IMG/VR virus record: IMGVR_UViG_3300033232_000030 | Location: 1-38,112 of that record | Length of the DNA stretch: 38,112 nt | Reading direction: 5' to 3' (one strand) | DNA from: a virus | Lineage: Duplodnaviria > Caudoviricetes | Shown here: positions 13,964 to 24,311 of the stretch, in pieces | How the letters are laid out: each line of letters opens with the position of its first letter | How positions within the stretch are numbered: position 1 is the stretch's first letter | The notes under the pieces: generated by a model | Databases searched by the model: none | What the model saw: only the letters and a program-made list of their open reading frames with translations | Told to the model about the DNA's origin: nothing | Position numbers and translations under genes: made by a program

Positions 13964-14224
13964 TTACACGCTGCTTTTGTGCGAGACTTTGCTTAAGGAG
14001 CGCAGAGCAGCCTTCTCTTTGCGATGGGCCTCGCGCTCTTTAACAAGCGTGGCGTAGCTGACCTTGTTTTTTGAAAGCTTGACGATGATTTCCATCCATT
14101 CTGTAGGCATCAGAATGTGGCCAGACTTGGCATTAGTGATGTTGGATCGATGGATACCAAGTTGCTTTGCAATTGTTGTTGCCATGCCGTAGTTTTCATC
14201 TAACCATGCGCTGAATTTTTTCAT
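13964..14224 (-). CDS. Cro-like HTH regulator
   Basis: Divergent from the CI-like gene; ATTIAKQLGIHRSNITNAK HTH. Confidence 0.7.
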   Translation of the reverse strand: MKKFSAWLDENYGMATTIAKQLGIHRSNITNAKSGHILMPTEWMEIIVKLSKNKVSYATLVKEREAHRKEKAALRSLSKVSHKSSV

Positions 14225-14282
14225 AAATGTTGCTTTAAGCTTGAAACAGTTTAAGTGTACAGCAAACAATTAGGAGTGTGTT

Positions 14283-14954
14283 ATGGATACATCAAAAGAT
14301 ATGGCGGTTTTGCGCCGGGCTAATCTGGAGGCATGGATGCACAAACACCGACTCAGCCAAACCGATGTTGCAAACAGGACAAACCGAAGCCGATCGCAGA
14401 TTTCTCTGTTGTTCAAGCGGTTTTTTGGCGAGAAGCTGGCGCGCGATATGGAACGCGATCTGGGTATGCCAAGCGGCTTTCTGGATGACGACACAACGTC
14501 GCCCAAGGGGGTTGAGGCATGGGCAACACCGGATGATTTGCAGCTTGGTGTTTATGCACTGGTGCCAATGGTGATGCTGGCGCTGTCAGATGGCAACCTG
14601 GTTAAACAGGAACAGGCAGCACCACCGCTGGCGTTCCGGCAGGAATGGCTAAAGAGTAAGAGCGTGACGGCCAAGCACAATTTGTGCGTGCTTGCCATGA
14701 CTGGCGATGCCATGACACCGTATTTGCAAGACAAGGATATGCTGTTGATTGATGTCGGGCAAACGGATGTCAATGACAACCAGATTTATGCGATTTCTTA
14801 TGGTGGAGAACTGCGCATGAAGCGCTTGAGCAGACGCTTTGACGGTGGCCTCAAGATCAGATCAGACAACCCGTCTTACCCGGACGATGACCTGAGCCCG
14901 GAGCAGGCAGGGCACATCGCAATTGTGGGTAAGTTGATTTGGCGTGCTGGCTAA
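14283..14954 (+). CDS. CI-like repressor (HTH plus S24 peptidase-like domain, catalytic Ser replaced by Ala)
   Basis: SQTDVANRTNRSRSQIS HTH; FGEKLARDME; GDAMTP; MKRL; SDNPSY; IVGKLIW; RBS AGGAG. Confidence 0.9.
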   Translation: MDTSKDMAVLRRANLEAWMHKHRLSQTDVANRTNRSRSQISLLFKRFFGEKLARDMERDLGMPSGFLDDDTTSPKGVEAWATPDDLQLGVYALVPMVMLALSDGNLVKQEQAAPPLAFRQEWLKSKSVTAKHNLCVLAMTGDAMTPYLQDKDMLLIDVGQTDVNDNQIYAISYGGELRMKRLSRRFDGGLKIRSDNPSYPDDDLSPEQAGHIAIVGKLIWRAG

Positions 14955-15366: not shown

Positions 15367-15734
15367 GATGGCGCTCCTGGCAGGTCCATCCAGTGGGTGG
15401 TGCTACTCAATATCCAGCCCTCGGAGCCGTTGTCTTTCCAGCGCGGCAGAGAGTCTTTGTCGATCTGTTCCAGGTAGGCAAGGCTGTAGTCGCAGCCATC
15501 CGACACAAGTACGACGCGAGAGTTGGGCCAGCCAAAGTCGCACTGGTCCATCACAGGAACATCTGGGATTGTGTGCCACCCAGGTTGGGCCGCTTGCCAG
15601 CACTCCCACAAGGTTTGGACGTGTGAGCTGTTGTAGTTGCCAGATGGCATGGGTTTGATGTTTGACCGGTAGCCTTGGGTAACTAACCAGGCGTGGAAGG
15701 TGTTGCGCTCTTCATTGTTTGTGTGTGTGCTCAT
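15363..15734 (-). CDS. DUF551-like hypothetical protein
   Basis: C-terminal THWMDLP; WECWQAA. Confidence 0.7.
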   Translation of the reverse strand: MSTHTNNEERNTFHAWLVTQGYRSNIKPMPSGNYNSSHVQTLWECWQAAQPGWHTIPDVPVMDQCDFGWPNSRVVLVSDGCDYSLAYLEQIDKDSLPRWKDNGSEGWILSSTTHWMDLPGAPS

Positions 15735-16639
15735 GATGTGAGTCCTTTCAGGATGCGGGTTTTGACGCTGCGTTCAGCGGCTTTTAAGGTGTTGCGGTGA
15801 ATGGCCAGGACAGGGTCGGTAAAGATAGTGCCGTCTTTTGGCTTTTGGTAACCACCAGCGTGACAGTAAACAATGGGCGCCATGATGTTGTCGAAAACAT
15901 CTTGGTCACGCTGGCGCAGCTCTTCATCATCAAGGTAGCCACCGAGTGGGTCTTTGATGTGCGGGTCGGCACCAGCCTGGTAGAGCACAAGGTTTGGCTT
16001 GAAGGTGTTGATGTCTGCAATGGCTTCGTGCAGCCAGGCCTGGAATTCGAGCGCTTCTTGCTTGGGTCTGTCGCCGTAAAAGTGATTGCCAGAGCTAAGG
16101 TGCAAGATGTTTGATTTCAGGGCCTGGTGCTTGTCAATAATGTTTTGAGTGCCATCACCAAAATGCATGTCGCAATCGAGTATGGCAATTTTGAATGACG
16201 GGTTTTCCTGGATCAGCTTGGCTGCCACAACCATGAGCCCATTGAATGTGCAGTAGCCACCGCCAAAATCGTAGCCAGCATGGTGAAAGCCAGAGGTTGG
16301 CGAGCATACCGGGCGATCAGGGTGATTGATGGCGAAACGTGCTGCCGACAGCAGGCTGCCAATGGTCCACATGCAGGCCTCAGGAACCCTGTCATCACGC
16401 AGCTCGAAGCCGTTGAGGATGGTGCCATCAAAAACACCGTTGACGTAGTCTGTTTTATGCACTAACAGCAGGGCAGCACGGGTAATTGGGGTGACTTTGC
16501 CAAGCCATGAATTGTTGTAGTCGCGGTAGTTGTAGTGCTGGATTAGCGTCATAAAGCGTGCAGGCTTGCCTGCCGATAGGCTGAAACTGTCCAGGTTCGG
16601 GACGTTTATGCGAGCGTCATAAAAAATTGGGATGGCCAT
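15731..16639 (-). CDS. Zn-dependent histone deacetylase family (lysine/acetylpolyamine deacylase) protein
   Basis: SGFHHAG, GGYCTFN, ILDCDMHFGDGT, YQAGADPHIKDPLG, GGY; start MAIPIFY at 16639. Confidence 0.92.
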   Translation of the reverse strand: MAIPIFYDARINVPNLDSFSLSAGKPARFMTLIQHYNYRDYNNSWLGKVTPITRAALLLVHKTDYVNGVFDGTILNGFELRDDRVPEACMWTIGSLLSAARFAINHPDRPVCSPTSGFHHAGYDFGGGYCTFNGLMVVAAKLIQENPSFKIAILDCDMHFGDGTQNIIDKHQALKSNILHLSSGNHFYGDRPKQEALEFQAWLHEAIADINTFKPNLVLYQAGADPHIKDPLGGYLDDEELRQRDQDVFDNIMAPIVYCHAGGYQKPKDGTIFTDPVLAIHRNTLKAAERSVKTRILKGLTS

Positions 16640-16643
16640 GTGC

Positions 16644-16829
16644 TTACGCCTGATTCTTGACATAAAGGTTGAGGCGCTTGATGAGCCCCTCGTGGTATTC
16701 GCTAAGCTTGCCATGGTACTCAGCAGCAGAACGGTGAGCCAGCGCCTGACGCTTGGCTTCTTCAAGCTCACGCTGTGCCAGCCTGGTGGCGTTTGGCTTG
16801 CAGAACGGTTGGATCAATTGTTTGAGCAT
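16644..16829 (-). CDS. Hypothetical protein
   Basis: Helical 61-aa ORF, LAQRELEEAKR...AAEYH; RBS GGAG. Confidence 0.7.
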   Translation of the reverse strand: MLKQLIQPFCKPNATRLAQRELEEAKRQALAHRSAAEYHGKLSEYHEGLIKRLNLYVKNQA

Positions 16830-17050
16830 GTTGTCTCCAGAAGATGGACGTTAATGATGTCGCGCAGCTTGGTGAGTTGCTCGCGCTCCAATAAGCTTGC
16901 GAATAAGGTTCGCTCTTCTTTTGGCTTTTTGCATTTGGCTTGCTGGCTGGTGAAGTGCAACCAGAAGTAGTCAAGTTCATGGTTGAAGCATTCTATTTTT
17001 TGAACGTGCAGGCGCAGCGTGTGGCTACCGTTGTCGATGAGTTTGTTCAT
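16814..17050 (-). CDS. Hypothetical protein
   Basis: ATGA-coupled ORF in the early operon. Confidence 0.6.
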   Translation of the reverse strand: MNKLIDNGSHTLRLHVQKIECFNHELDYFWLHFTSQQAKCKKPKEERTLFASLLEREQLTKLRDIINVHLLETTCSNN

Positions 17051-17313
17051 TGTTCGGCCTTTGCGATGGCTGCTTTGATGATGTTGATGGATTCGTTGAC
17101 ATAGCCTGGCTTGTAGCAATCGTCCATGGCGCAGTCTTCGAGGAACGGCAAGGCCAGGTACAGGGCGTTGAGTAGGTCGGTGTAGGCATTGAGCGCCACG
17201 GCTCCGGCCTTGAGTTCTTCGGGCGTGAATTTGCCTCCGCCAATGGTGGCCCCCTTGCGCTCGATGAAGGCGTTGCGCATGTTGGCGGCCAGTGTGTTGA
17301 TGTCACTCATCAT
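17047..17313 (-). CDS. Hypothetical protein
   Basis: RBS AGGAGG; DLLNAL...AAIAKAE phage motif. Confidence 0.7.
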   Translation of the reverse strand: MMSDINTLAANMRNAFIERKGATIGGGKFTPEELKAGAVALNAYTDLLNALYLALPFLEDCAMDDCYKPGYVNESINIIKAAIAKAEQ

Positions 17314-17506
17314 TTCCTCCTGTTGTGTTTGAGATTGCTTTTAACGCGATGGTCAGGTCGCGCTTTAGGGCGGCATATTCGATCTCTCTTTCGCCGTGGT
17401 ACTCAGATGGCGTTTCTGTCCGCGGGCTGTAATTGGTGCGGGTGACGCAAAAGGTATCGACATGCACTTTGCATGGGATGCCTGCGATTCGGGTGTCGAT
17501 GTTCAT
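17303..17506 (-). CDS. Hypothetical protein
   Basis: IDTRIAGIPC motif; RBS GGAG. Confidence 0.65.
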   Translation of the reverse strand: MNIDTRIAGIPCKVHVDTFCVTRTNYSPRTETPSEYHGEREIEYAALKRDLTIALKAISNTTGGNDE

Positions 17507-17601
17507 AGCGGTCTCCAGTAGTAAAGGTCAAGCGCCAGAATGAAAAAAGCCGCGGTGTAAACAGCGGCTGCGATGAGGTTGAGAATTCGGTGGTAATTCA
17601 T
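17503..17601 (-). CDS. 32-aa membrane peptide, not in the ORF track
   Basis: MNYHRILNLIAAAVYTAAFFILALDLYYWRPL; RBS GAGG; ATGA overlap with the next gene. Confidence 0.65.
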   Translation of the reverse strand: MNYHRILNLIAAAVYTAAFFILALDLYYWRPL

Positions 17602-17610
17602 TTTTTACCC

Positions 17611-18117
17611 TCAGATGAAGACCAGCACTTTGCCGTCTTTGTTAACAAATTTCACGTCGCCGCCATAGCGTGCATCTCTGGCGTATTGCTCAAAGTTGAT
17701 GTAGCCGCGTGCATACTCTGGAATATCAGCAAGCATGCCAGCGGACTCCCAGTATTCTTCAGCCCATTCGGCTTCGCTGTCGAATTTGCCGTAGTAAGCC
17801 TCTTGTGCTTTGTCGATGTCGCCTTCTGGATCGATGCAGCAGAGATAGACTTCCAGCAGCTCTTTGTCATCGTCGTCAAGGCTGACCCATGAGTCCCAGA
17901 CTTCGGGGTCAAGGTGCGATTCGCTGATGAAGCGCTCGGGGATGCCTTCGTGGTCTTGGTACATGAATTCGTGTTCACCTTGACCATGCAACTCTTGGCA
18001 GGCTTCCTCGAATTCTTTAATGTCATCGTATTCTTCGAGGTTGAGCCAGGCGCCATCAATGGCGCCAGCGTTGTATTTGCCGTAGGTGCCGACGTAGATT
18101 CGTGGGGTGGTGCTCAT
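17611..18117 (-). CDS. ardA: Antirestriction protein ArdA (DNA mimic)
   Basis: IYVGTYGKYNAG...GAWLNL, FMYQDHE, YINFEQYARD; highly acidic. Confidence 0.92.
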   Translation of the reverse strand: MSTTPRIYVGTYGKYNAGAIDGAWLNLEEYDDIKEFEEACQELHGQGEHEFMYQDHEGIPERFISESHLDPEVWDSWVSLDDDDKELLEVYLCCIDPEGDIDKAQEAYYGKFDSEAEWAEEYWESAGMLADIPEYARGYINFEQYARDARYGGDVKFVNKDGKVLVFI

Positions 18118-18129
18118 GATGTGTGCTCC

Positions 18130-18516
18130 TTAGTAGTGTGGGGTGCTTAGCAGGGCGACGTGCAGCCTGAATGCGAATGCTTTGCGCTTGGCCAATGTGC
18201 TGTGGTTGTCTGGCGTGGCTAGCCATCCGCTCACGGCTTGCAGGTTTTCGCGGCAGCGGCGGTGGTCGGCCTTGAGGCGGTTAACTTCGTCCTGCAAAGC
18301 ATTGATCATGGTGTCTGCATCCAGACCCATGCCCTCGGTTTTGCCTTCTTCATAGGCCTCTGCGCGGGCTGCTTCGATCTCCTGCTCGTGCCGGTCATCG
18401 TCATCTTTTTTGTCTTCCAAGTCGGCAGCAAATGCCGCCAGGTGCGCCTTGCCGTACAGGTAGGCATACCGTTCAATTTCAGCGTTTGTAAGATTGGCGT
18501 TCCAGATTGTTCCCAT
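18130..18516 (-). CDS. Hypothetical coiled-coil protein
   Basis: RBS GGAG; operon orientation. Confidence 0.7.
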   Translation of the reverse strand: MGTIWNANLTNAEIERYAYLYGKAHLAAFAADLEDKKDDDDRHEQEIEAARAEAYEEGKTEGMGLDADTMINALQDEVNRLKADHRRCRENLQAVSGWLATPDNHSTLAKRKAFAFRLHVALLSTPHY

Positions 18517-18540
18517 GGTGTTCTCCAGGTTTCAGGCAAT

Positions 18541-18562
18541 AAAAAACCCGCCGTAGCGGGTT
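18541..18562 (-). terminator. Rho-independent terminator
   Basis: Minus strand aacccgc-tacg-gcgggtt followed by a T-run. Confidence 0.7.
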
Positions 18563-18577
18563 GTGGTTTGAGTGAGG

Positions 18578-18889
18578 TTACTTAAGGTCTGGATACCCCA
18601 GATCATCAAGGATTGCTTGCTGATCTTCCCCCTCCAAAATTTTAATCAGACAGCGGCCATTTTTGGCCACCCTGATTACCTCGCCAACGCCGTGACCATG
18701 GGTCGAAACGTCGTTGTAGCTGCCACACCAGCCATGGAGCCTGGGCATGTGGCTCTGATTTGTGTAGGGTGGCGTGTCTCTTAGCTCCCACCGTTCCCAC
18801 CCCCCGTTGTAGGGGTTGGCCTTTTCGATCAGAAAGCCAACATCCCCAACGCTGAGTGAGTCGTCAGGGCCAATCCATTGCGTAGTCAT
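18578..18889 (-). CDS. Hypothetical protein
   Basis: ORF in operon orientation with RLHGWCGSYND motif; start uncertain. Confidence 0.6.
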   Translation of the reverse strand: MTTQWIGPDDSLSVGDVGFLIEKANPYNGGWERWELRDTPPYTNQSHMPRLHGWCGSYNDVSTHGHGVGEVIRVAKNGRCLIKILEGEDQQAILDDLGYPDLK

Positions 18890-18993
18890 GTCAAATCCAA
18901 TCAAGTAAACACCGGTAAGCGACCGGGGCGCAGATGCAATATAGCATCACTGATCTAGCCCCTGTCACAGGCTAGAGCGCTGATGTCATGTTT

Positions 18994-19512
18994 TTAGCAG
19001 GCTAATTCCGTGTTAACCAAAGTGGCCCTGGCGAGCTGTTTGGCGTTCATGCGGTAGCGGCAGCCACCACTGCTGTGTACGATCCAGCCCTTGCGAGGAC
19101 CGGCCGGGCTGATCAGTGTGTAGGTGTCTTTACCGTAAGATATGACCTGGCCAGCAAAGGCTTTGTTCTTTTTGTTGCTCTGATGCGCCCTTACTTTAAG
19201 GCGCCAGTCACCGGCATAACCAGTGGTTGGCGCAGGGGCAGCGTCCAGGTAGGACAGCGGACAGTCGTAGCAGTATGGGCCGCAGGTTTCGTCCATGCTT
19301 TTGTAGCCCCAGCCCATGTTCTTCCCGCCGCCTTGCAGCAGGTCCAGGCCGATCCAGGTGACGCCGTTGGTCTCGGCCAGATACCAGTGATGGTTGCCGA
19401 CTGTGCAAGCCTTGAGTAGCTTGGTTTGCGGGCCGAAGCGGCTCGGACTGCGAAGTTCTGCAACGCAGGCTGCTTTGTTGTGCGACGTATCGTAAGCGAA
19501 TGACCAACCCAT
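18994..19512 (-). CDS. DUF6927-like hypothetical protein
   Basis: MGW start; WGYKSMDETCGPYCYDCPLSYLD; strong RBS AAGGAG. Confidence 0.75.
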   Translation of the reverse strand: MGWSFAYDTSHNKAACVAELRSPSRFGPQTKLLKACTVGNHHWYLAETNGVTWIGLDLLQGGGKNMGWGYKSMDETCGPYCYDCPLSYLDAAPAPTTGYAGDWRLKVRAHQSNKKNKAFAGQVISYGKDTYTLISPAGPRKGWIVHSSGGCRYRMNAKQLARATLVNTELAC

Positions 19513-19581
19513 GATGATTCTCCTTTAAAAATGAAACCGTCAGATGGCTTCCACGGAAACAAAAAACCCTGTTCGCTGATG

Positions 19582-19767
19582 TCATGTTTTAAGAGTCGTT
19601 TCATAAACCAGGCTCAAACCATATTTGGTTCCTGATTTAGCTGTGAAGCGTTCGTAACGCTCTTCAAAAGAACGTAATCCTTCATTCCAGGAATGCAGTG
19701 GCTGACCATTTGGCATTTGGCCAATGATCTTTAGATTTTCTGGTGGTGGAGTATGTTTTTCATGCAT
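19582..19767 (-). CDS. Hypothetical protein
   Basis: TGATG coupling with the upstream gene. Confidence 0.5.
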   Translation of the reverse strand: MHEKHTPPPENLKIIGQMPNGQPLHSWNEGLRSFEERYERFTAKSGTKYGLSLVYETTLKT

Positions 19768-19973
19768 CACAGCACCGCCTTTTCTGCCAGCTCATCGCTG
19801 ATGTCGCCGTTGCGTAGGCAGTAGTCAATAAAGTCGCACCAGGCAACCCGAATATCAACTGGCTGGCTGTTTTGACGCTTGCCGCGTGTGCCCGCTTGAC
19901 GGGCTTGCAAATCAAATTCAGGGTGGTTTTCCCAGAATGCATCGCGCAACTGTTTTTGTGTGGTGTAGTTCAT
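19767..19973 (-). CDS. Hypothetical protein
   Basis: RBS AAGGAG; TTQKQLRDAFW...AWCDFIDYCLRNGDIS. Confidence 0.7.
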   Translation of the reverse strand: MNYTTQKQLRDAFWENHPEFDLQARQAGTRGKRQNSQPVDIRVAWCDFIDYCLRNGDISDELAEKAVL

Positions 19974-20236
19974 GGTGACTCCTTGTAAGTAATCCGTTTT
20001 GTGATGGTCCAACGATCAAGCACTGGTGCGCCGTATTCGTTTTCATCAATGGCGACGTAGGCAACGCCCTTGCGGACAATGCCGAAGCGCACGCCGTCAA
20101 GAACATCAATCTCGTGAATGAGATCATGGCTGATAGCCCAGGCATTGTTCGTTGGTTTGAACGTGAAATAGCGGCGGGTTTCAGGAACATAGAACTCGCC
20201 ACTGTCTCCAGAAAATTGTTTGTCGTAGCGTATCAT
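19970..20236 (-). CDS. Hypothetical protein, first gene of the early operon
   Basis: RBS AGGAG; ATGA overlap with the next gene. Confidence 0.7.
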   Translation of the reverse strand: MIRYDKQFSGDSGEFYVPETRRYFTFKPTNNAWAISHDLIHEIDVLDGVRFGIVRKGVAYVAIDENEYGAPVLDRWTITKRITYKESP

Positions 20237-20251
20237 TTCTGCTCCTAGTTT

Positions 20252-20580
20252 GAAAAAACAAAAGCCACCTGGTTGGCAAGTGGCTTGTGTTTTGCCCCTG
20301 TTGCCAAGGGCTTACGCATCACGTTTTGCTATCCAGACCCCCGGATATGTGATGCTGTGGACGTCTCCCCGTTTCCGGGCTTCCACATGATGTCCGTCTC
20401 TTCCGGCCGACGTAGCCGCTTTCCACACCGTCGCTTTGAGCCCGGTATTGCTACCGTAGAGCGCTTCCTGTCTGATATGAATCAGGAGGATGCAAGGGCG
20501 TCCACTCATTTGTATTCCGCCGTGGAGGGCGGTGCGACCGTTTTTGCTGGTCTGGCGATCCGGGCGATGCCGTTCGATGG
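20252..20580 (-). ncRNA. Candidate large structured non-coding RNA or leader
   Basis: Lies between a promoter and a terminator; about nine helices, several capped by GNRA loops (GCAA, GAAA). Confidence 0.6.
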
Positions 20581-20585
20581 GGTCT

Positions 20586-20614
20586 ATTGTTTTCCAAAAA
20601 GCAAACAATGTCAA
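20586..20614 (-). promoter_or_regulatory. Leftward promoter of the early operon / ncRNA
   Basis: TTGACA(20614-20609)-17-AACAAT; spacer contains TGTTTGCTT as in the other leftward promoters. Confidence 0.6.
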
Positions 20615-20846
20615 GTTAGCATGTCAAAGTGGCTGATTTGCATGTTGCTTTTTTGTTGATCCCCCAATGAAAACCATCGTTTTCAAATAGTTGAGTTTGT
20701 CGAAGGGTTATTTGGCGATTTGCTTTGCGCATGACATGTGCGCCTGGCTGCCAGTGCCAGATGTGTGTATGGGTGGGCGTCGCGCGGTTTATTCCAGTCG
20801 CGCGAGGCGTTTTGCGTGTTGTGCCAGTTGCCAGTCAAGGATGCCG

Positions 20847-21674
20847 TCAAGCCTGGCAAGCTGGCGCTTGTTGAGGTGCGCTGGATGTTCGCCAATCAGT
20901 CATGTCCCAGTTGCCCTTGCCCCCATTGCAGTCGCCACAAAGAATTTGGAGGTTGTCGATATTCAGCGCCAGGTCCGGAAATATCTTGCGCGGCTTGATG
21001 TGGTCAACGTGAATGACAGCACCAGTCTTGGCTGAGGCGCCACAGCACTGACAGACAGGGCCGTATTTTTTCAGTGCCATCATGCGGGTGGCTTTCCATT
21101 CGAATGTGCTCAAAAAGTCGTCCGAAGCCGGGTTGACTTTAGAGTGATTGACAATAAATGATTTGACGGATTGCTCTGTTGGCTGACGCGCGACCAATCT
21201 GCTTAATGGTTCATGGTGCGACTGGGCCTTGCTTGGTTGAGCTTTCACACGAGGAATCCAGTTCAACTGACACCACTCGCGCAGCTTTTTCTTGTTTTCG
21301 CGCATGAATACCTTCACGCTGCCGGAATATGTTGAGCCAAGTACTTCGACAACACGAGGAGCAACAGCGCCAAACAAACCAATACCACCGAGACGACTGC
21401 CATTAATTCCAGAGCACCTAAGGATGTCGTAGGCGAGTGTTGTGAGCTCTTTTCCCTCGACCTTCTTCCGTAATTTTTTATTCGCATTCTTTGGATGGCT
21501 GATTGCAGGCGGTCTATTTGCCGTAGCCTTTTGCGCTACAGCTTTAATGGCAGAGGCCGTTTTGCGCTCGGATTTCAGCTTTTTCTCAATCAAAGAAAGG
21601 AATGCGTGCCTTTTCTGCTTTGATGCTGCTTTCCATTCTTCAGTCTCTTTTAACTCCTCTATCTTCATTTTCAT
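20847..21674 (-). CDS. HNH endonuclease with basic N-terminal extension
   Basis: CQCCG...IHVDHIKP...NLQILCGDCNGGK. Confidence 0.85.
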   Translation of the reverse strand: MKMKIEELKETEEWKAASKQKRHAFLSLIEKKLKSERKTASAIKAVAQKATANRPPAISHPKNANKKLRKKVEGKELTTLAYDILRCSGINGSRLGGIGLFGAVAPRVVEVLGSTYSGSVKVFMRENKKKLREWCQLNWIPRVKAQPSKAQSHHEPLSRLVARQPTEQSVKSFIVNHSKVNPASDDFLSTFEWKATRMMALKKYGPVCQCCGASAKTGAVIHVDHIKPRKIFPDLALNIDNLQILCGDCNGGKGNWDMTDWRTSSAPQQAPACQA

Positions 21675-21895
21675 CTTCAACTTAGTTCCTTGGTATTCAG
21701 GTATCACCCCGAAAGAAAACAGAAAACCAAACCACAAACCCCCCCTACCCCCCAAGCCGATCTCAGGGTGGCACCCGGTTAATTCCGGAAAGCCCAAAGC
21801 AAAGAAAAAGAAAGTGTCAATGGACGTGTGATCCGCTCACACTTTCTCTTTCGTGCTGACCTATCTCTGGGGTTGTAGCCCCACAAAATCCTTTC

Positions 21896-22036
21896 AAAAA
21901 AAAGCCATTAAGTCCTGGTCTTCCGCCTGCCAGCGTGACCCCGAAGGGTTTGGAAGACCAAGGCTTAATGGCTTTGGTTTTGTCACGCTGGCGGCTTGAC
22001 GAAAAGAATTCTACAACAAAGTTTTCACGAAAGCAA
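21896..22036 (-). promoter_or_regulatory. Promoter plus attenuator-like / C4-like structured leader
   Basis: TTGCTT-17-TAGAAT (22036-22008); long stem 21901-21924/21952-21975 followed by a T-run; loop segment 21929-21939 complementary to 21982-21992. Confidence 0.55.
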
Positions 22037-22069
22037 CATGACAGTATGTTGCAAGGTAAAATATGCCTC

Positions 22070-22429
22070 ATGACAAACGAACTTACTTTGCCGTGGCCAC
22101 CAAAGGGGCTGAGCCCGAATGCGCGACTGCATTGGGCTGCCAAGTCAAAGATCACCAAAGCGTACAAAGAGGTTTGCTGGGCGTTATGCAAGGAATCCGG
22201 CATGGTGGCACCTGATTCGCACAGGATTGCTTTGTGGTTGGATTTCTTTCCGCCCGACCGTAGAGCACGCGATGACGACAATATCATTGCCAGTTTCAAG
22301 GCTGGCCGCGATGGATTGGCGCTTGCGTTGGGGATAGACGATAAGAGATTTGTCTTGCGCCCATTTGTGCAGGATAAGGTGGGCGGAATAATCAAGGTTC
22401 GATTAAGCACTTACCCGGAGAGCGCATGA
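22070..22429 (+). CDS. rusA: RusA-like Holliday junction resolvase
   Basis: LPWPP..LSPN.R.HW; PPDRRARDDDNIIASFKAGRDG; IDD. Confidence 0.85.
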   Translation: MTNELTLPWPPKGLSPNARLHWAAKSKITKAYKEVCWALCKESGMVAPDSHRIALWLDFFPPDRRARDDDNIIASFKAGRDGLALALGIDDKRFVLRPFVQDKVGGIIKVRLSTYPESA

Positions 22430-22692
22430 CCCACAGCCATTACTTCAAAGATGTCGCTAATTTGCAACAGATTGATGTTTACCGTGTCCTTGAGCTGTTC
22501 GAGGTAACCTGCCCAGTGGCACAGCACATTGTCAAAAAAGCCCTGGTGGCCGGTAACCGTGGGGCAAAAAGCCAAACCAGAGACATGCAGGACATTGCTG
22601 ACAGCGCACAAAGATGGTTGGAGATGCGCAAAGAGGATGGCACCAGTAACCGATTGGATGAGGCCTATGAAAAAGCCAAGGGAGCCGCTTGA
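22426..22692 (+). CDS. DUF3310-like hypothetical protein
   Basis: HSHY...IDVYRVL...VKKALVAGNRGAK...DMQD. Confidence 0.65.
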   Translation: MTHSHYFKDVANLQQIDVYRVLELFEVTCPVAQHIVKKALVAGNRGAKSQTRDMQDIADSAQRWLEMRKEDGTSNRLDEAYEKAKGAA

Positions 22693-23234
22693 TGGCGAGC
22701 ATGCAGGAGCGCTACTTTGCTGCGCGCAACAGCAGCAATTTGAGGCTTAACCCGGAGCGTGTTGGCGCAACTGATGTGCTGATCGCATCTGGCAGGGTGG
22801 CTGGCCGCAGTGAGCGCAAGGCATTGGCAATTGCCGTATGGGGCACGCTCTCTTCAGACCATATGACGGGGGCAAATGCAATAGCAGAGCGCATGGCCGG
22901 GTGGCTGCGCAAACGCTCATTCGCCAGAGATGGCAAGGCGATTCCAGACACCCACGCCAAAGATACGGCTATGGCCGTGCTTAAGTGGTGGCGAAAACCG
23001 GCATGCCTGACATGTGGTGGCCATGGACATCCATTGATACCGGATTCGCCAGTGATCGATACAAGCCGGGATTGCACTGACTGCAATGGCACTGGTCAGA
23101 TGCCACTGAGAAAGATTGTGCGCACCGAATATATCAATGATGCCTATTGGCTAAGTGCAGAGATTGATATGCTGTGTGCCTTGGTATTTGGCGAGATGGC
23201 GCGTGAGATTAAAGCAGACATGGACACACTATGA
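22689..23234 (+). CDS. Putative late antiterminator (Q-like, CxxCxGxG Zn finger)
   Basis: CLTCGGHG and CTDCNGTG; positioned before the late promoter/terminator and packaging genes. Confidence 0.6.
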   Translation: MMASMQERYFAARNSSNLRLNPERVGATDVLIASGRVAGRSERKALAIAVWGTLSSDHMTGANAIAERMAGWLRKRSFARDGKAIPDTHAKDTAMAVLKWWRKPACLTCGGHGHPLIPDSPVIDTSRDCTDCNGTGQMPLRKIVRTEYINDAYWLSAEIDMLCALVFGEMAREIKADMDTL

Positions 23235-23428
23235 AAAAGTACGGCTGCCACGACAGAGCAGATTACCCGCCAACATACCAAGGCCAAGATGGCTGGATTC
23301 GCTCAGGTGATCAAGCTGTCGCAAAGATGGTAGATATTGAATTCAAATCCAGCCAGGAATGCAACTACACAATGACGGACCTGGGTAGGGTTGATCCAAG
23401 GTGTGAGGGCTGTTCTCGTAAAAAATAA
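23231..23428 (+). CDS. Small Cys-containing hypothetical protein
   Basis: YGCHDR...C.Y...DPRCEGC; ATGA overlap. Confidence 0.65.
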   Translation: MKKYGCHDRADYPPTYQGQDGWIRSGDQAVAKMVDIEFKSSQECNYTMTDLGRVDPRCEGCSRKK

Positions 23429-23440
23429 TTGTCAACACTA

Positions 23441-23468
23441 TTGCAAATATCTTGTAATCTGTTACATT
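23441..23468 (+). promoter_or_regulatory. Candidate late promoter
   Basis: TTGCAA-16-TACATT. Confidence 0.45.
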
Positions 23469-23632
23469 AACGCTCAGCAACAGAGCCGGACAGACAGCAC
23501 CGGCATTAAAACAAGCAGCAACCCTTAAGGCACAGGTGCCTCTAGTTGCGGAAAAACAACAGTTTACAGAACATTAAGCCGATCCATTTGGATCAGGTAA
23601 CCAAGTACTCCTTCAGCTCGCAAGGGCTGTTC

Positions 23633-23663
23633 ACCCCTGTCGAGTTCGCTCCAGGGGTTTTTT
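23633..23663 (+). terminator. Terminator in the late leader (tR'-like)
   Basis: acccctg...caggggt followed by a T-run, upstream of terS. Confidence 0.7.
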
Positions 23664-23696
23664 ATTGTTGCTCCTGGCGTGAGCGAGGGGAATGAG

Positions 23697-24311
23697 ATGG
23701 AAGAGAACAAGCAAAGACGACGTGACACGGATTGGGATGCAGTTCATCGTGATTACAGGACTGGCAAGTTTACCGACCGTGAATTGGCAGCCAAGTACAA
23801 GCTGACGCACACAGCCATTGGTAAGAAGCGCCGTGAAGGTGGTTGGCAAAAGGATTTGTCTGAGATCATCAGGCAAGAAACAGAAGCGGCTGTGCTTAAT
23901 GCGATTGCAGCAAAGGAAACTGCAAGGCAAGAAGTCATCCAGAAAGCCGCAAGAGATAGCGACCTGTCAGAGGAACAAGTTTCCAAAGTAGTTTCCAGGG
24001 ACGCGGATAACAGTTTCCAAGAAGTTTCCAAAGTCGTAAAAACGGCAGCTGCAGTCAATTTACGGGTGATTGAAGGACAGCACACAAGGCTTGAAGCTTT
24101 GCGTGATTTGTTTGTATCTGGGGCGAATGCTGCACGACGTTTACTTGATGACCCTGACTTGAAGTCAGCTCAGGCTGGCGTACAGGCAATGGCTACAGCA
24201 ATAGGCGCTGGAAAGGTGATTACCGAGCTTGAGAACAAGGTTCATAAGCTTGATAAAGAAGAAACCGGAGATTCGTCATTTGAGGCAGCGCTAAGGGCTT
24301 TGCATGGATGA
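23697..24311 (+). CDS. Terminase small subunit
   Basis: DWDAVHRDYRTG...RELAAKY...AIGKKRREGGW HTH; directly before terL. Confidence 0.8.
   Translation: MEENKQRRRDTDWDAVHRDYRTGKFTDRELAAKYKLTHTAIGKKRREGGWQKDLSEIIRQETEAAVLNAIAAKETARQEVIQKAARDSDLSEEQVSKVVSRDADNSFQEVSKVVKTAAAVNLRVIEGQHTRLEALRDLFVSGANAARRLLDDPDLKSAQAGVQAMATAIGAGKVITELENKVHKLDKEETGDSSFEAALRALHG

Follow-up and report, generated by a model that had tools for sequence, protein, structure and literature searches.

An uncatalogued, modular leader RNA heads early gene clusters of uncultured phages and may promote terminator read-through

The DNA analyzed here (38,112 nucleotides, hereafter the window) is a 38-kb virus record with a completeness of about 47%, and the records of all its relatives are likewise incomplete. 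Genes for head, portal, and tail proteins occupy the plus strand from about 23.7 kb, and replication and recombination genes lie on the minus strand. At approximately 14 kb, a gene for a cI-like S24 repressor (14283–14954) is accompanied by a cro-like ORF, the pair spanning 13964–14954. Between this pair and the late arm is a 5-kb run of small minus-strand genes, which includes genes for the anti-restriction protein ArdA and a histone-deacetylase-family protein, and this cluster is headed by a noncoding leader of approximately 325 nt located at the predicted start of the early-gene transcript (Table 1). In contrast to the lambda PL operon, the cluster reaches cI at the 3′ end of that gene, and two relatives (L134 and L135) have the same layout. 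ArdA is carried by the cluster in the window and in L134, and relatives of the deacetylase-family gene were found in five of six leader-bearing clusters versus only 11 of 50,697 GenBank phage records. A 20-nt direct repeat with 95% identity (18978–18997 and 19574–19593) lies at ends of early-cluster genes and is possibly an operator or a recombination site. Just before the terminase genes, a 181-aa protein with a CXXC zinc-finger region is encoded on the plus strand (22689–23234), and its position suggests a late antiterminator.

Table 1. Promoter, leader RNA domains, and early-cluster features of the window, listed in the direction of transcription
Feature	Position	Strand	Basis
Predicted sigma-70-type promoter, TTGACA-17-AACAAT; predicted RNA start at about 20578	20586..20614	-	Promoter scan
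Core hairpin 1 with near-invariant CAUCG loop; begins at about +3	20556..20576	-	Six pairs, one with a two-sided and one with a one-sided change
Core hairpin 2; 9-nt A-rich loop	20536..20552	-	Three pairs counted, 100% paired, two with two-sided changes
Core H-type pseudoknot; stem 20532-20517, loop UCCAC with GUGGA (20505-20501), 11-nt A-rich linker	20501..20532	-	Predicted in 16/16 leaders
M3, three-way junction; variable hairpin (includes 20472-20485) and GNAA-capped hairpin (20443-20456)	20425..20501	-	4/16 leaders
M4, 33-nt hairpin; small pseudoknot predicted between loop CGUC and GACG downstream	20389..20421	-	3/16 leaders
M5, hairpin with GAAA tetraloop; 3′ strand would alternatively pair in the proposed long-range helix	20356..20387	-	Folding only, z -2.2; no homologue found
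M6, hairpin with asymmetric internal loop	20316..20355	-	Folding only, z -3.8; no homologue found
M7, hairpin with GNAA loop	20294..20311	-	Folds at this position
Intrinsic terminator closing the leader, ahead of the first gene	20253..20293	-	Scan and folding
First gene (88 aa, without clear family) and its ribosome-binding site	19970..20246	-	31 related loci
Second intrinsic terminator, within the cluster; no promoter-like site after it	18537..18562	-	Terminator and promoter scan
ArdA anti-restriction gene, downstream of two terminators	17611..18117	-	PF07275, E 1e-25
Gene of the histone-deacetylase family, toward the far end of the cluster	15731..16771	-	PF00850, E 4e-30

The original prediction, made from the letters of the window, had placed a highly structured RNA between a TTGACA promoter and a terminator. 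Both sites are present: the promoter (20614–20586) had the top score among seven promoter-like sites in positions 17000–24000, and the terminator, with its stem at 20286–20262 and a U-rich tail, had the longest stem among 12 terminator-like sites; the totals of promoter-like and terminator-like sites were not above those in shuffled sequences, and the scan alone proves neither site. Folding of the 346-nt strand gave −128 kcal/mol (z = −3.92), with none of 100 shuffles as stable, and the structured element is real. Two ORFs overlap the leader, and that on the minus strand begins within the −35 box. Both are broken by stops or frame changes in the homologous leaders described below and matched no protein family; a protein product was ruled out because the reading frames are not kept, in line with the earlier view that the leader holds no convincing coding sequence. 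No tRNA or tmRNA gene was found in the window by ARAGORN, again as predicted, and none of the 20 largest repeat families shown lies inside the leader. A search of the window leader against Rfam 15 gave no match at E ≤ 1, the C4, EAR, type III antitoxin, riboswitch, and ribozyme families included, and nothing reached the gathering level on the leader in 12 homologue loci (scanned by E-value, E ≤ 5) or in five long regions. The leader RNA family is thus absent from Rfam 15; this absence, and the occurrence of 15 homologous leaders with compensatory changes, bears out the suggestion of a novel phage noncoding RNA.

These 15 homologous leaders come from uncultured phages and form, with the window, a working set of 16 that includes some near-identical pairs and three leaders cut short by contig ends. 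True leaders accounted for 5/6, 2/3, 12/77, 6/10, and 1/1 of the hits in the motif scans; the other hits (1/6, 1/3, 65/77, and 4/10), which had neither a promoter nor a 5′ arm, were discarded as chance, and duplicates (L067, L070, L092, L116, and L117) and re-finds were merged. TTGAC stands 34–36 nt before the RNA start in 16/16 leaders, a figure that is partly circular because the promoter was used to sort true matches, and the homologues have a TANANT-like −10 element. Each leader heads an early gene cluster after a predicted sigma-70-type promoter and, in contigs that extend further, is followed by consecutive small genes on the same strand; the genes upstream differ widely among relatives. 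A model of the core described below found one copy in the window and one per whole record in all five relatives searched. The 88-aa first gene has 31 relatives, and in 30 of their records, which are mostly fragments, the core model had no match; L002 gave a weak match (E 0.0015) to the leader and has the same layout as the window. A tie of the RNA to the first gene or to an upstream HNH gene was rejected: most first-gene relatives lack the RNA, and the upstream genes vary; judged from these sequences, the first gene appears to be a mobile early gene that is not tied to the leader RNA. Exact patterns from the 3′ half of the window leader gave no matches. BLASTN searches of 50,697 GenBank phages with the leaders of the window, L103, and L060 returned nothing or short chance matches, as did plasmids (two matches, both short and by chance) and a GTDB genome scan (two matches, both by chance). 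A TTCATTGGG-type motif lies ~50–70 nt upstream of the −35 box in the window (about 20660–20675) and, at the corresponding position, in several homologues, and some relatives have a GTTGC...GCAAC inverted repeat farther upstream of it; both are possible protein-binding sites.

Sequence comparison indicates that all 16 leaders share a core of ~80 nt, predicted to form two hairpins and an H-type pseudoknot, and only this core is common to all of them. Single-sequence folding favors a different register for hairpin 1, whereas covariation supports the register given in Table 1. The pseudoknot was recovered in 16/16 leaders by a search restricted to the expected interval: it lies at +45 to +47 in 15 leaders and at +86, after an insertion, in L041. 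Its second helix occurs as nine different sequences, every one of which is fully complementary, and in seven leaders tested only 0–4 of 60 shuffles matched it. In an alignment of 12 leaders, 98.1% of the cells of hairpins 1 and 2 pair, 3/9 pairs change on both sides, and 1/500 shuffles reach the score, and for the pseudoknot 3/10 pairs have two-sided changes in each of two subtypes (six and five sequences); these covariation figures are not probabilities because the structures were derived from the same sequences and the sets are small. Among the homologues, folding z-scores lie between −4.6 and +0.2; thermodynamic stability is therefore not general by itself, and the case rests on covariation. 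The loops of hairpins 1 and 2 hardly vary in sequence, which suggests specific contacts.

All eight hairpins listed in the original prediction fold as it described. It had overlooked the 5′ hairpin, the core pseudoknot, the three-way junction, and the likely second pseudoknot (Table 1), and two of its long-range contacts are probably wrong when set against the homologous sequences. The first, a helix closing a multibranch domain, has the claimed complement (20499–20505 with 20357–20363) and a pair probability of 0.67 in pseudoknot-free folding, and barring the pseudoknot strands from pairing in such folding raises the energy by only 2.9 kcal/mol. As a working structure, it is unsupported by the homologues: it would engage the pseudoknot's covarying 3′ strand, and a partner is missing from 9 of the 12 leaders examined. 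The second, a kissing or switch interaction of UUGGCAA with UUGCCAA in the terminator loop, likewise exists as a complement in the sequence, yet this pairing would be less stable than the two hairpins by 13.8 kcal/mol, and complementarity is limited to 4 nt in the two further leaders that end in a terminator. A ligand-sensing attenuator, in which the pseudoknot or junction would sense a metabolite and switch the terminator, or a self-cleaving ribozyme would suit such an alternative helix, as well as the compact pseudoknots and the three-way junction with their conserved unpaired letters. We regard this explanation as highly improbable: the alternative helix is not conserved and does not touch the terminator, Rfam gave no riboswitch or ribozyme match, and no metabolic theme is evident among the downstream genes.

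3′ of the core, the 16 leaders are mosaic, carrying differing mixes of RNA domains in which at least ten accessory motifs appear in mix-and-match order; the tail of the window consists of M3, M4, M5, M6, the GNAA hairpin M7, and the terminator. M3 folds as one and the same three-way junction in three leaders. Its inner helices show two-sided changes (three sequences), as counted with a first-guess closing helix that has been replaced by one also fitting L095 and L041; in the latter helix, 35/36 cells are paired and the changes are one-sided only. M4 keeps 31/33 nt across three different contexts; M3 accompanies it in L095 but not in L121. The small pseudoknot predicted for M4 is likely, though its helix is invariant among homologues and so gives no covariation in its favor; M4 as a whole shows one two-sided change, which is not above shuffles (146/500). 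A look-alike of M7 with a GAAA loop occurs at the same place in L036 as a weak match (E 0.37), and analogous hairpins were seen by eye in other leaders. Across six long regions, the longer accessory motifs were found in leaders only, and the three shortest patterns occurred elsewhere at chance level. From this distribution, the rear domains (M3–M7 in the window and others elsewhere) appear to be exchangeable add-ons. More uncatalogued leader RNA motifs that are missing from the window occur in L103 (1098–1540), L121 (2175–2516), L085, L122, and L034–L036, each of which could be an RNA family of its own.

The original prediction had treated the element as a discrete promoter-to-terminator RNA. 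As a general form this fails, since the terminator pattern ends only 3/16 leaders (a further three are truncated by contig ends). The GCCAC...GUGGC stem type of the leader terminator also occurs between cluster genes in relatives, which suggests that it is probably an acquired cluster terminator and not a part of the RNA family. These endings bear on whether the leaders act in trans as arrays of decoys. Such a leader would be set free at the terminator or through processing, accumulate as a stable and abundant RNA, and use its separate domains to mimic ligands of host proteins, for example a defense sensor or a toxin; it would be the RNA counterpart of the variable anti-defense genes behind it. 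The mix-and-match occurrence of motifs whose longer members are seen in leaders only, the constancy of M4 in three contexts, and the presence of ArdA in the clusters of the window and L134 all agree with decoys. Type III antitoxins fold as H-type pseudoknots, and pseudo-ToxI of PhiTE is a tandem repeat. The phage-made pseudo-ToxI is a known case of phage RNA mimicking an antitoxin (PMC3475682). Unlike pseudo-ToxI, the leader has single dissimilar domains without tandem repeats of a unit and one core copy per record, and no antitoxin or CRISPR-repeat match was found in Rfam at E ≤ 1 for the window or E ≤ 5 for the homologues. The scarcity of terminator-ended leaders also tells against decoys, which in addition leave terminator read-through unexplained, and on balance we consider this explanation, the chief rival of the one favored below, fairly unlikely. 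The protein sponges CsrB and RsmZ carry many ANGGA motifs in loops; a CsrA-type sponge was rejected because the window leader has one ANGGA and the homologues have 0–3. The GGA count of the leader is only marginally high (11 versus a mean of 7.3; 53/1000 shuffles).

A stabilizer or processing platform at the 5′ end of the early mRNA was also considered, in which the paired 5′ end and the pseudoknot would shield the transcript from decay, the rear domains would set cleavage or translation of the first gene, and the terminators would leak. Hairpin 1 lies only a few nucleotides from the RNA start, the stems covary while the sequence of the pseudoknot helix is free, as expected of a barrier that depends on shape only, and 7/16 leaders end in a hairpin module adjoining the ribosome-binding site. 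The near-invariant loops of hairpins 1 and 2, however, suggest specific contacts, and two to four serial terminators would leave little distal expression by leakage alone. We therefore rate this platform as quite unlikely.

The distribution of terminators points to another function. Six leader-bearing clusters (35.5 kb) contain 15 sense-strand terminators (two to four each), no antisense terminators, and two internal promoter-like sites, versus 18 terminators and 50 promoter-like sites in 21 control loci (113 kb) that have the same first gene without the leader; these controls are unmatched in region and base composition, and 9/30 were omitted as near-duplicates. The first terminator of the window leaves only about 15 nt to the start codon of gene one, and ArdA is reached only past a second one, so that read-through is needed. 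Because a terminator stands ahead of every gene in the window, L034, and L037, read-through there could not be started by an N-like protein from the operon itself. The six clusters have no ORF family that occurs in all of them, the most widespread one (5/6) lies beyond terminators, and ahead of the terminators all clusters share only the RNA core.

These observations lead us to propose that the leader is a cis-acting, RNA-only, put-like antiterminator that is unrelated by sequence to HK022 put, a proposal that we favor while giving it somewhat less than an even chance. Host sigma-70 polymerase would start at about 20578, and the core would fold cotranscriptionally, at a time when the competing strand (about +217) has yet to be made. 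We infer that the core would then bind the host RNA polymerase making it and stay on it during elongation, and that a polymerase carrying the core would pass the terminators at 20262 and 18545, so that ArdA and other early genes could be made without any phage protein. Polymerases stopping at 20253 would release a 325-nt RNA. Several points weigh against this antiterminator: the terminators could simply leak and thereby grade expression, the controls are unmatched and also hold terminators of their own, and an antiterminator protein encoded elsewhere in the phage is possible in view of the incomplete records. Furthermore, put is described as about 65 nt long (PMC8632103), and therefore 170–360 nt of further conserved domains would be left unexplained.

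A protein-dependent site resembling nut is one such possibility. A phage protein from another transcript would bind the A-rich loop of hairpin 2 and modify the polymerase. In nut/N antitermination, boxA and boxB are accompanied by a cognate N gene before the first terminator. The A-rich loop is conserved, and the cI/cro-like pair in the window is as in lambdoid phages. A boxA-like motif, however, occurs in 1/16 leaders, the clusters have no shared protein, and the variety of the genes upstream of the leader also speaks against a nut-like site, which we judge very unlikely. The decoy role for the rear domains is compatible with the antiterminator proposed above and is the bolder of the two. A two-part device, in which the universal knotted core makes the host polymerase processive and the rear is an array of independent RNA domains, exchanged among phages in the manner of anti-defense genes, that forms an RNA-only counter-defense island acting ahead of any phage protein synthesis, is conceivable, and we hold it to be unlikely.

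EAR RNA of Bacillus subtilis contains a pseudoknot and is chromosomal and intergenic, not at a transcript start. No Rfam match of the window leader to EAR was found. A review passage names put, EAR, and RARE as the RNA-based antitermination systems, with EAR as the second (PMC8632103). The put RNA of HK022 is described as a cis-acting double-hairpin RNA that drives read-through of early genes (PMC8632103; PMC9378689), and its two stems form a V in which stem I contains a triplex, and an A9–G35 pair is present (PMC9378689). As with HK022 putL and putR, the leader is a promoter-proximal structured RNA with two adjacent stem-loops, heading an early operon with predicted internal terminators, and no phage protein is apparent in the incomplete records at hand. 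The put RNA acts in cis against termination and binds the zinc-binding domain of the polymerase β′ subunit. The core hairpins are shorter than the put stems and are followed by a pseudoknot, which put lacks, as it lacks the long modular tail; moreover, the operon here points toward cI and not away from it. Homology to putL was rejected: local alignments were no better than chance (58–179 of 300 shuffles scored as well), and core model R1 gave ≤ 8.1 bits over the HK022 region holding PL. A −10-like element (NANNAT or TANNNT), present in putL at about +23 to +28, occurs in the first 40 nt of 0/16 leaders, and the lack of both this pause element and any likeness to putL above chance counts against the antiterminator.

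A similar arrangement was noticed in the A1 transcript of T7 (L137, 149–240), where a candidate hairpin–hairpin–pseudoknot lies no more than about 90 nt from the first promoter for the host polymerase and ahead of an anti-restriction gene. This candidate, which is located between the first two host promoters and unannotated in the T7 record, is shared by three relatives (L140, L143, and L144), and its pseudoknot part matches several hundred phage records. Like the leader, it has the same order of elements and starts with CCATCGA; unlike the leader, it has no modular tail, T3 lacks the CCATCGA start, and CATCG is found at that place in 2/28 control promoters. The T7 element was rejected as a homologue (R1 7.6 bits, E 0.53) and is an analogue of the leader, not support for it.

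Taken together, the results describe a real, uncatalogued, modular phage leader RNA whose structure is well supported and whose function is a proposal drawn from sequence. If antitermination is true, a structurally unrelated pseudoknotted family would mean that the mechanism arose more than once, and a compact 80-nt element would become available for work on polymerase processivity and its engineering. That phage leaders exchange entire RNA domains is unusual in itself and offers at least ten new motifs as decoy candidates. If leader pseudoknots are general to first phage transcripts, as the analogous T7 arrangement raises, the question extends to textbook phages. No description of this RNA was found in the literature: the readable supplement tables of PMC10690425, a study of over ten thousand phage RNA candidates, contain neither the motifs nor the five contig names tried, and an earlier listing is possible in the alignments of that study or in the supplement of PMC5737381.

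A second structured RNA accompanies the leader in the same kind of phage. Betaproteobacteria-1 RNA (RF02932) lies upstream of the leader in L038 (76–205) and L095 (837–957) and also occurs in L003 (4879–4996); it is a separate element and was unmatched in the window. About 230–290 nt upstream of the 88-aa gene in L003, a GAAA...CUGAUGA arrangement, which we take to be a hammerhead-like motif, was seen by eye and is below the Rfam gathering score. The relatives of the terminase, at < 45% identity, gave no host clue, and our guess that the host is a betaproteobacterium is based on the occurrence of Betaproteobacteria-1 RNA close to the leaders of two relatives.
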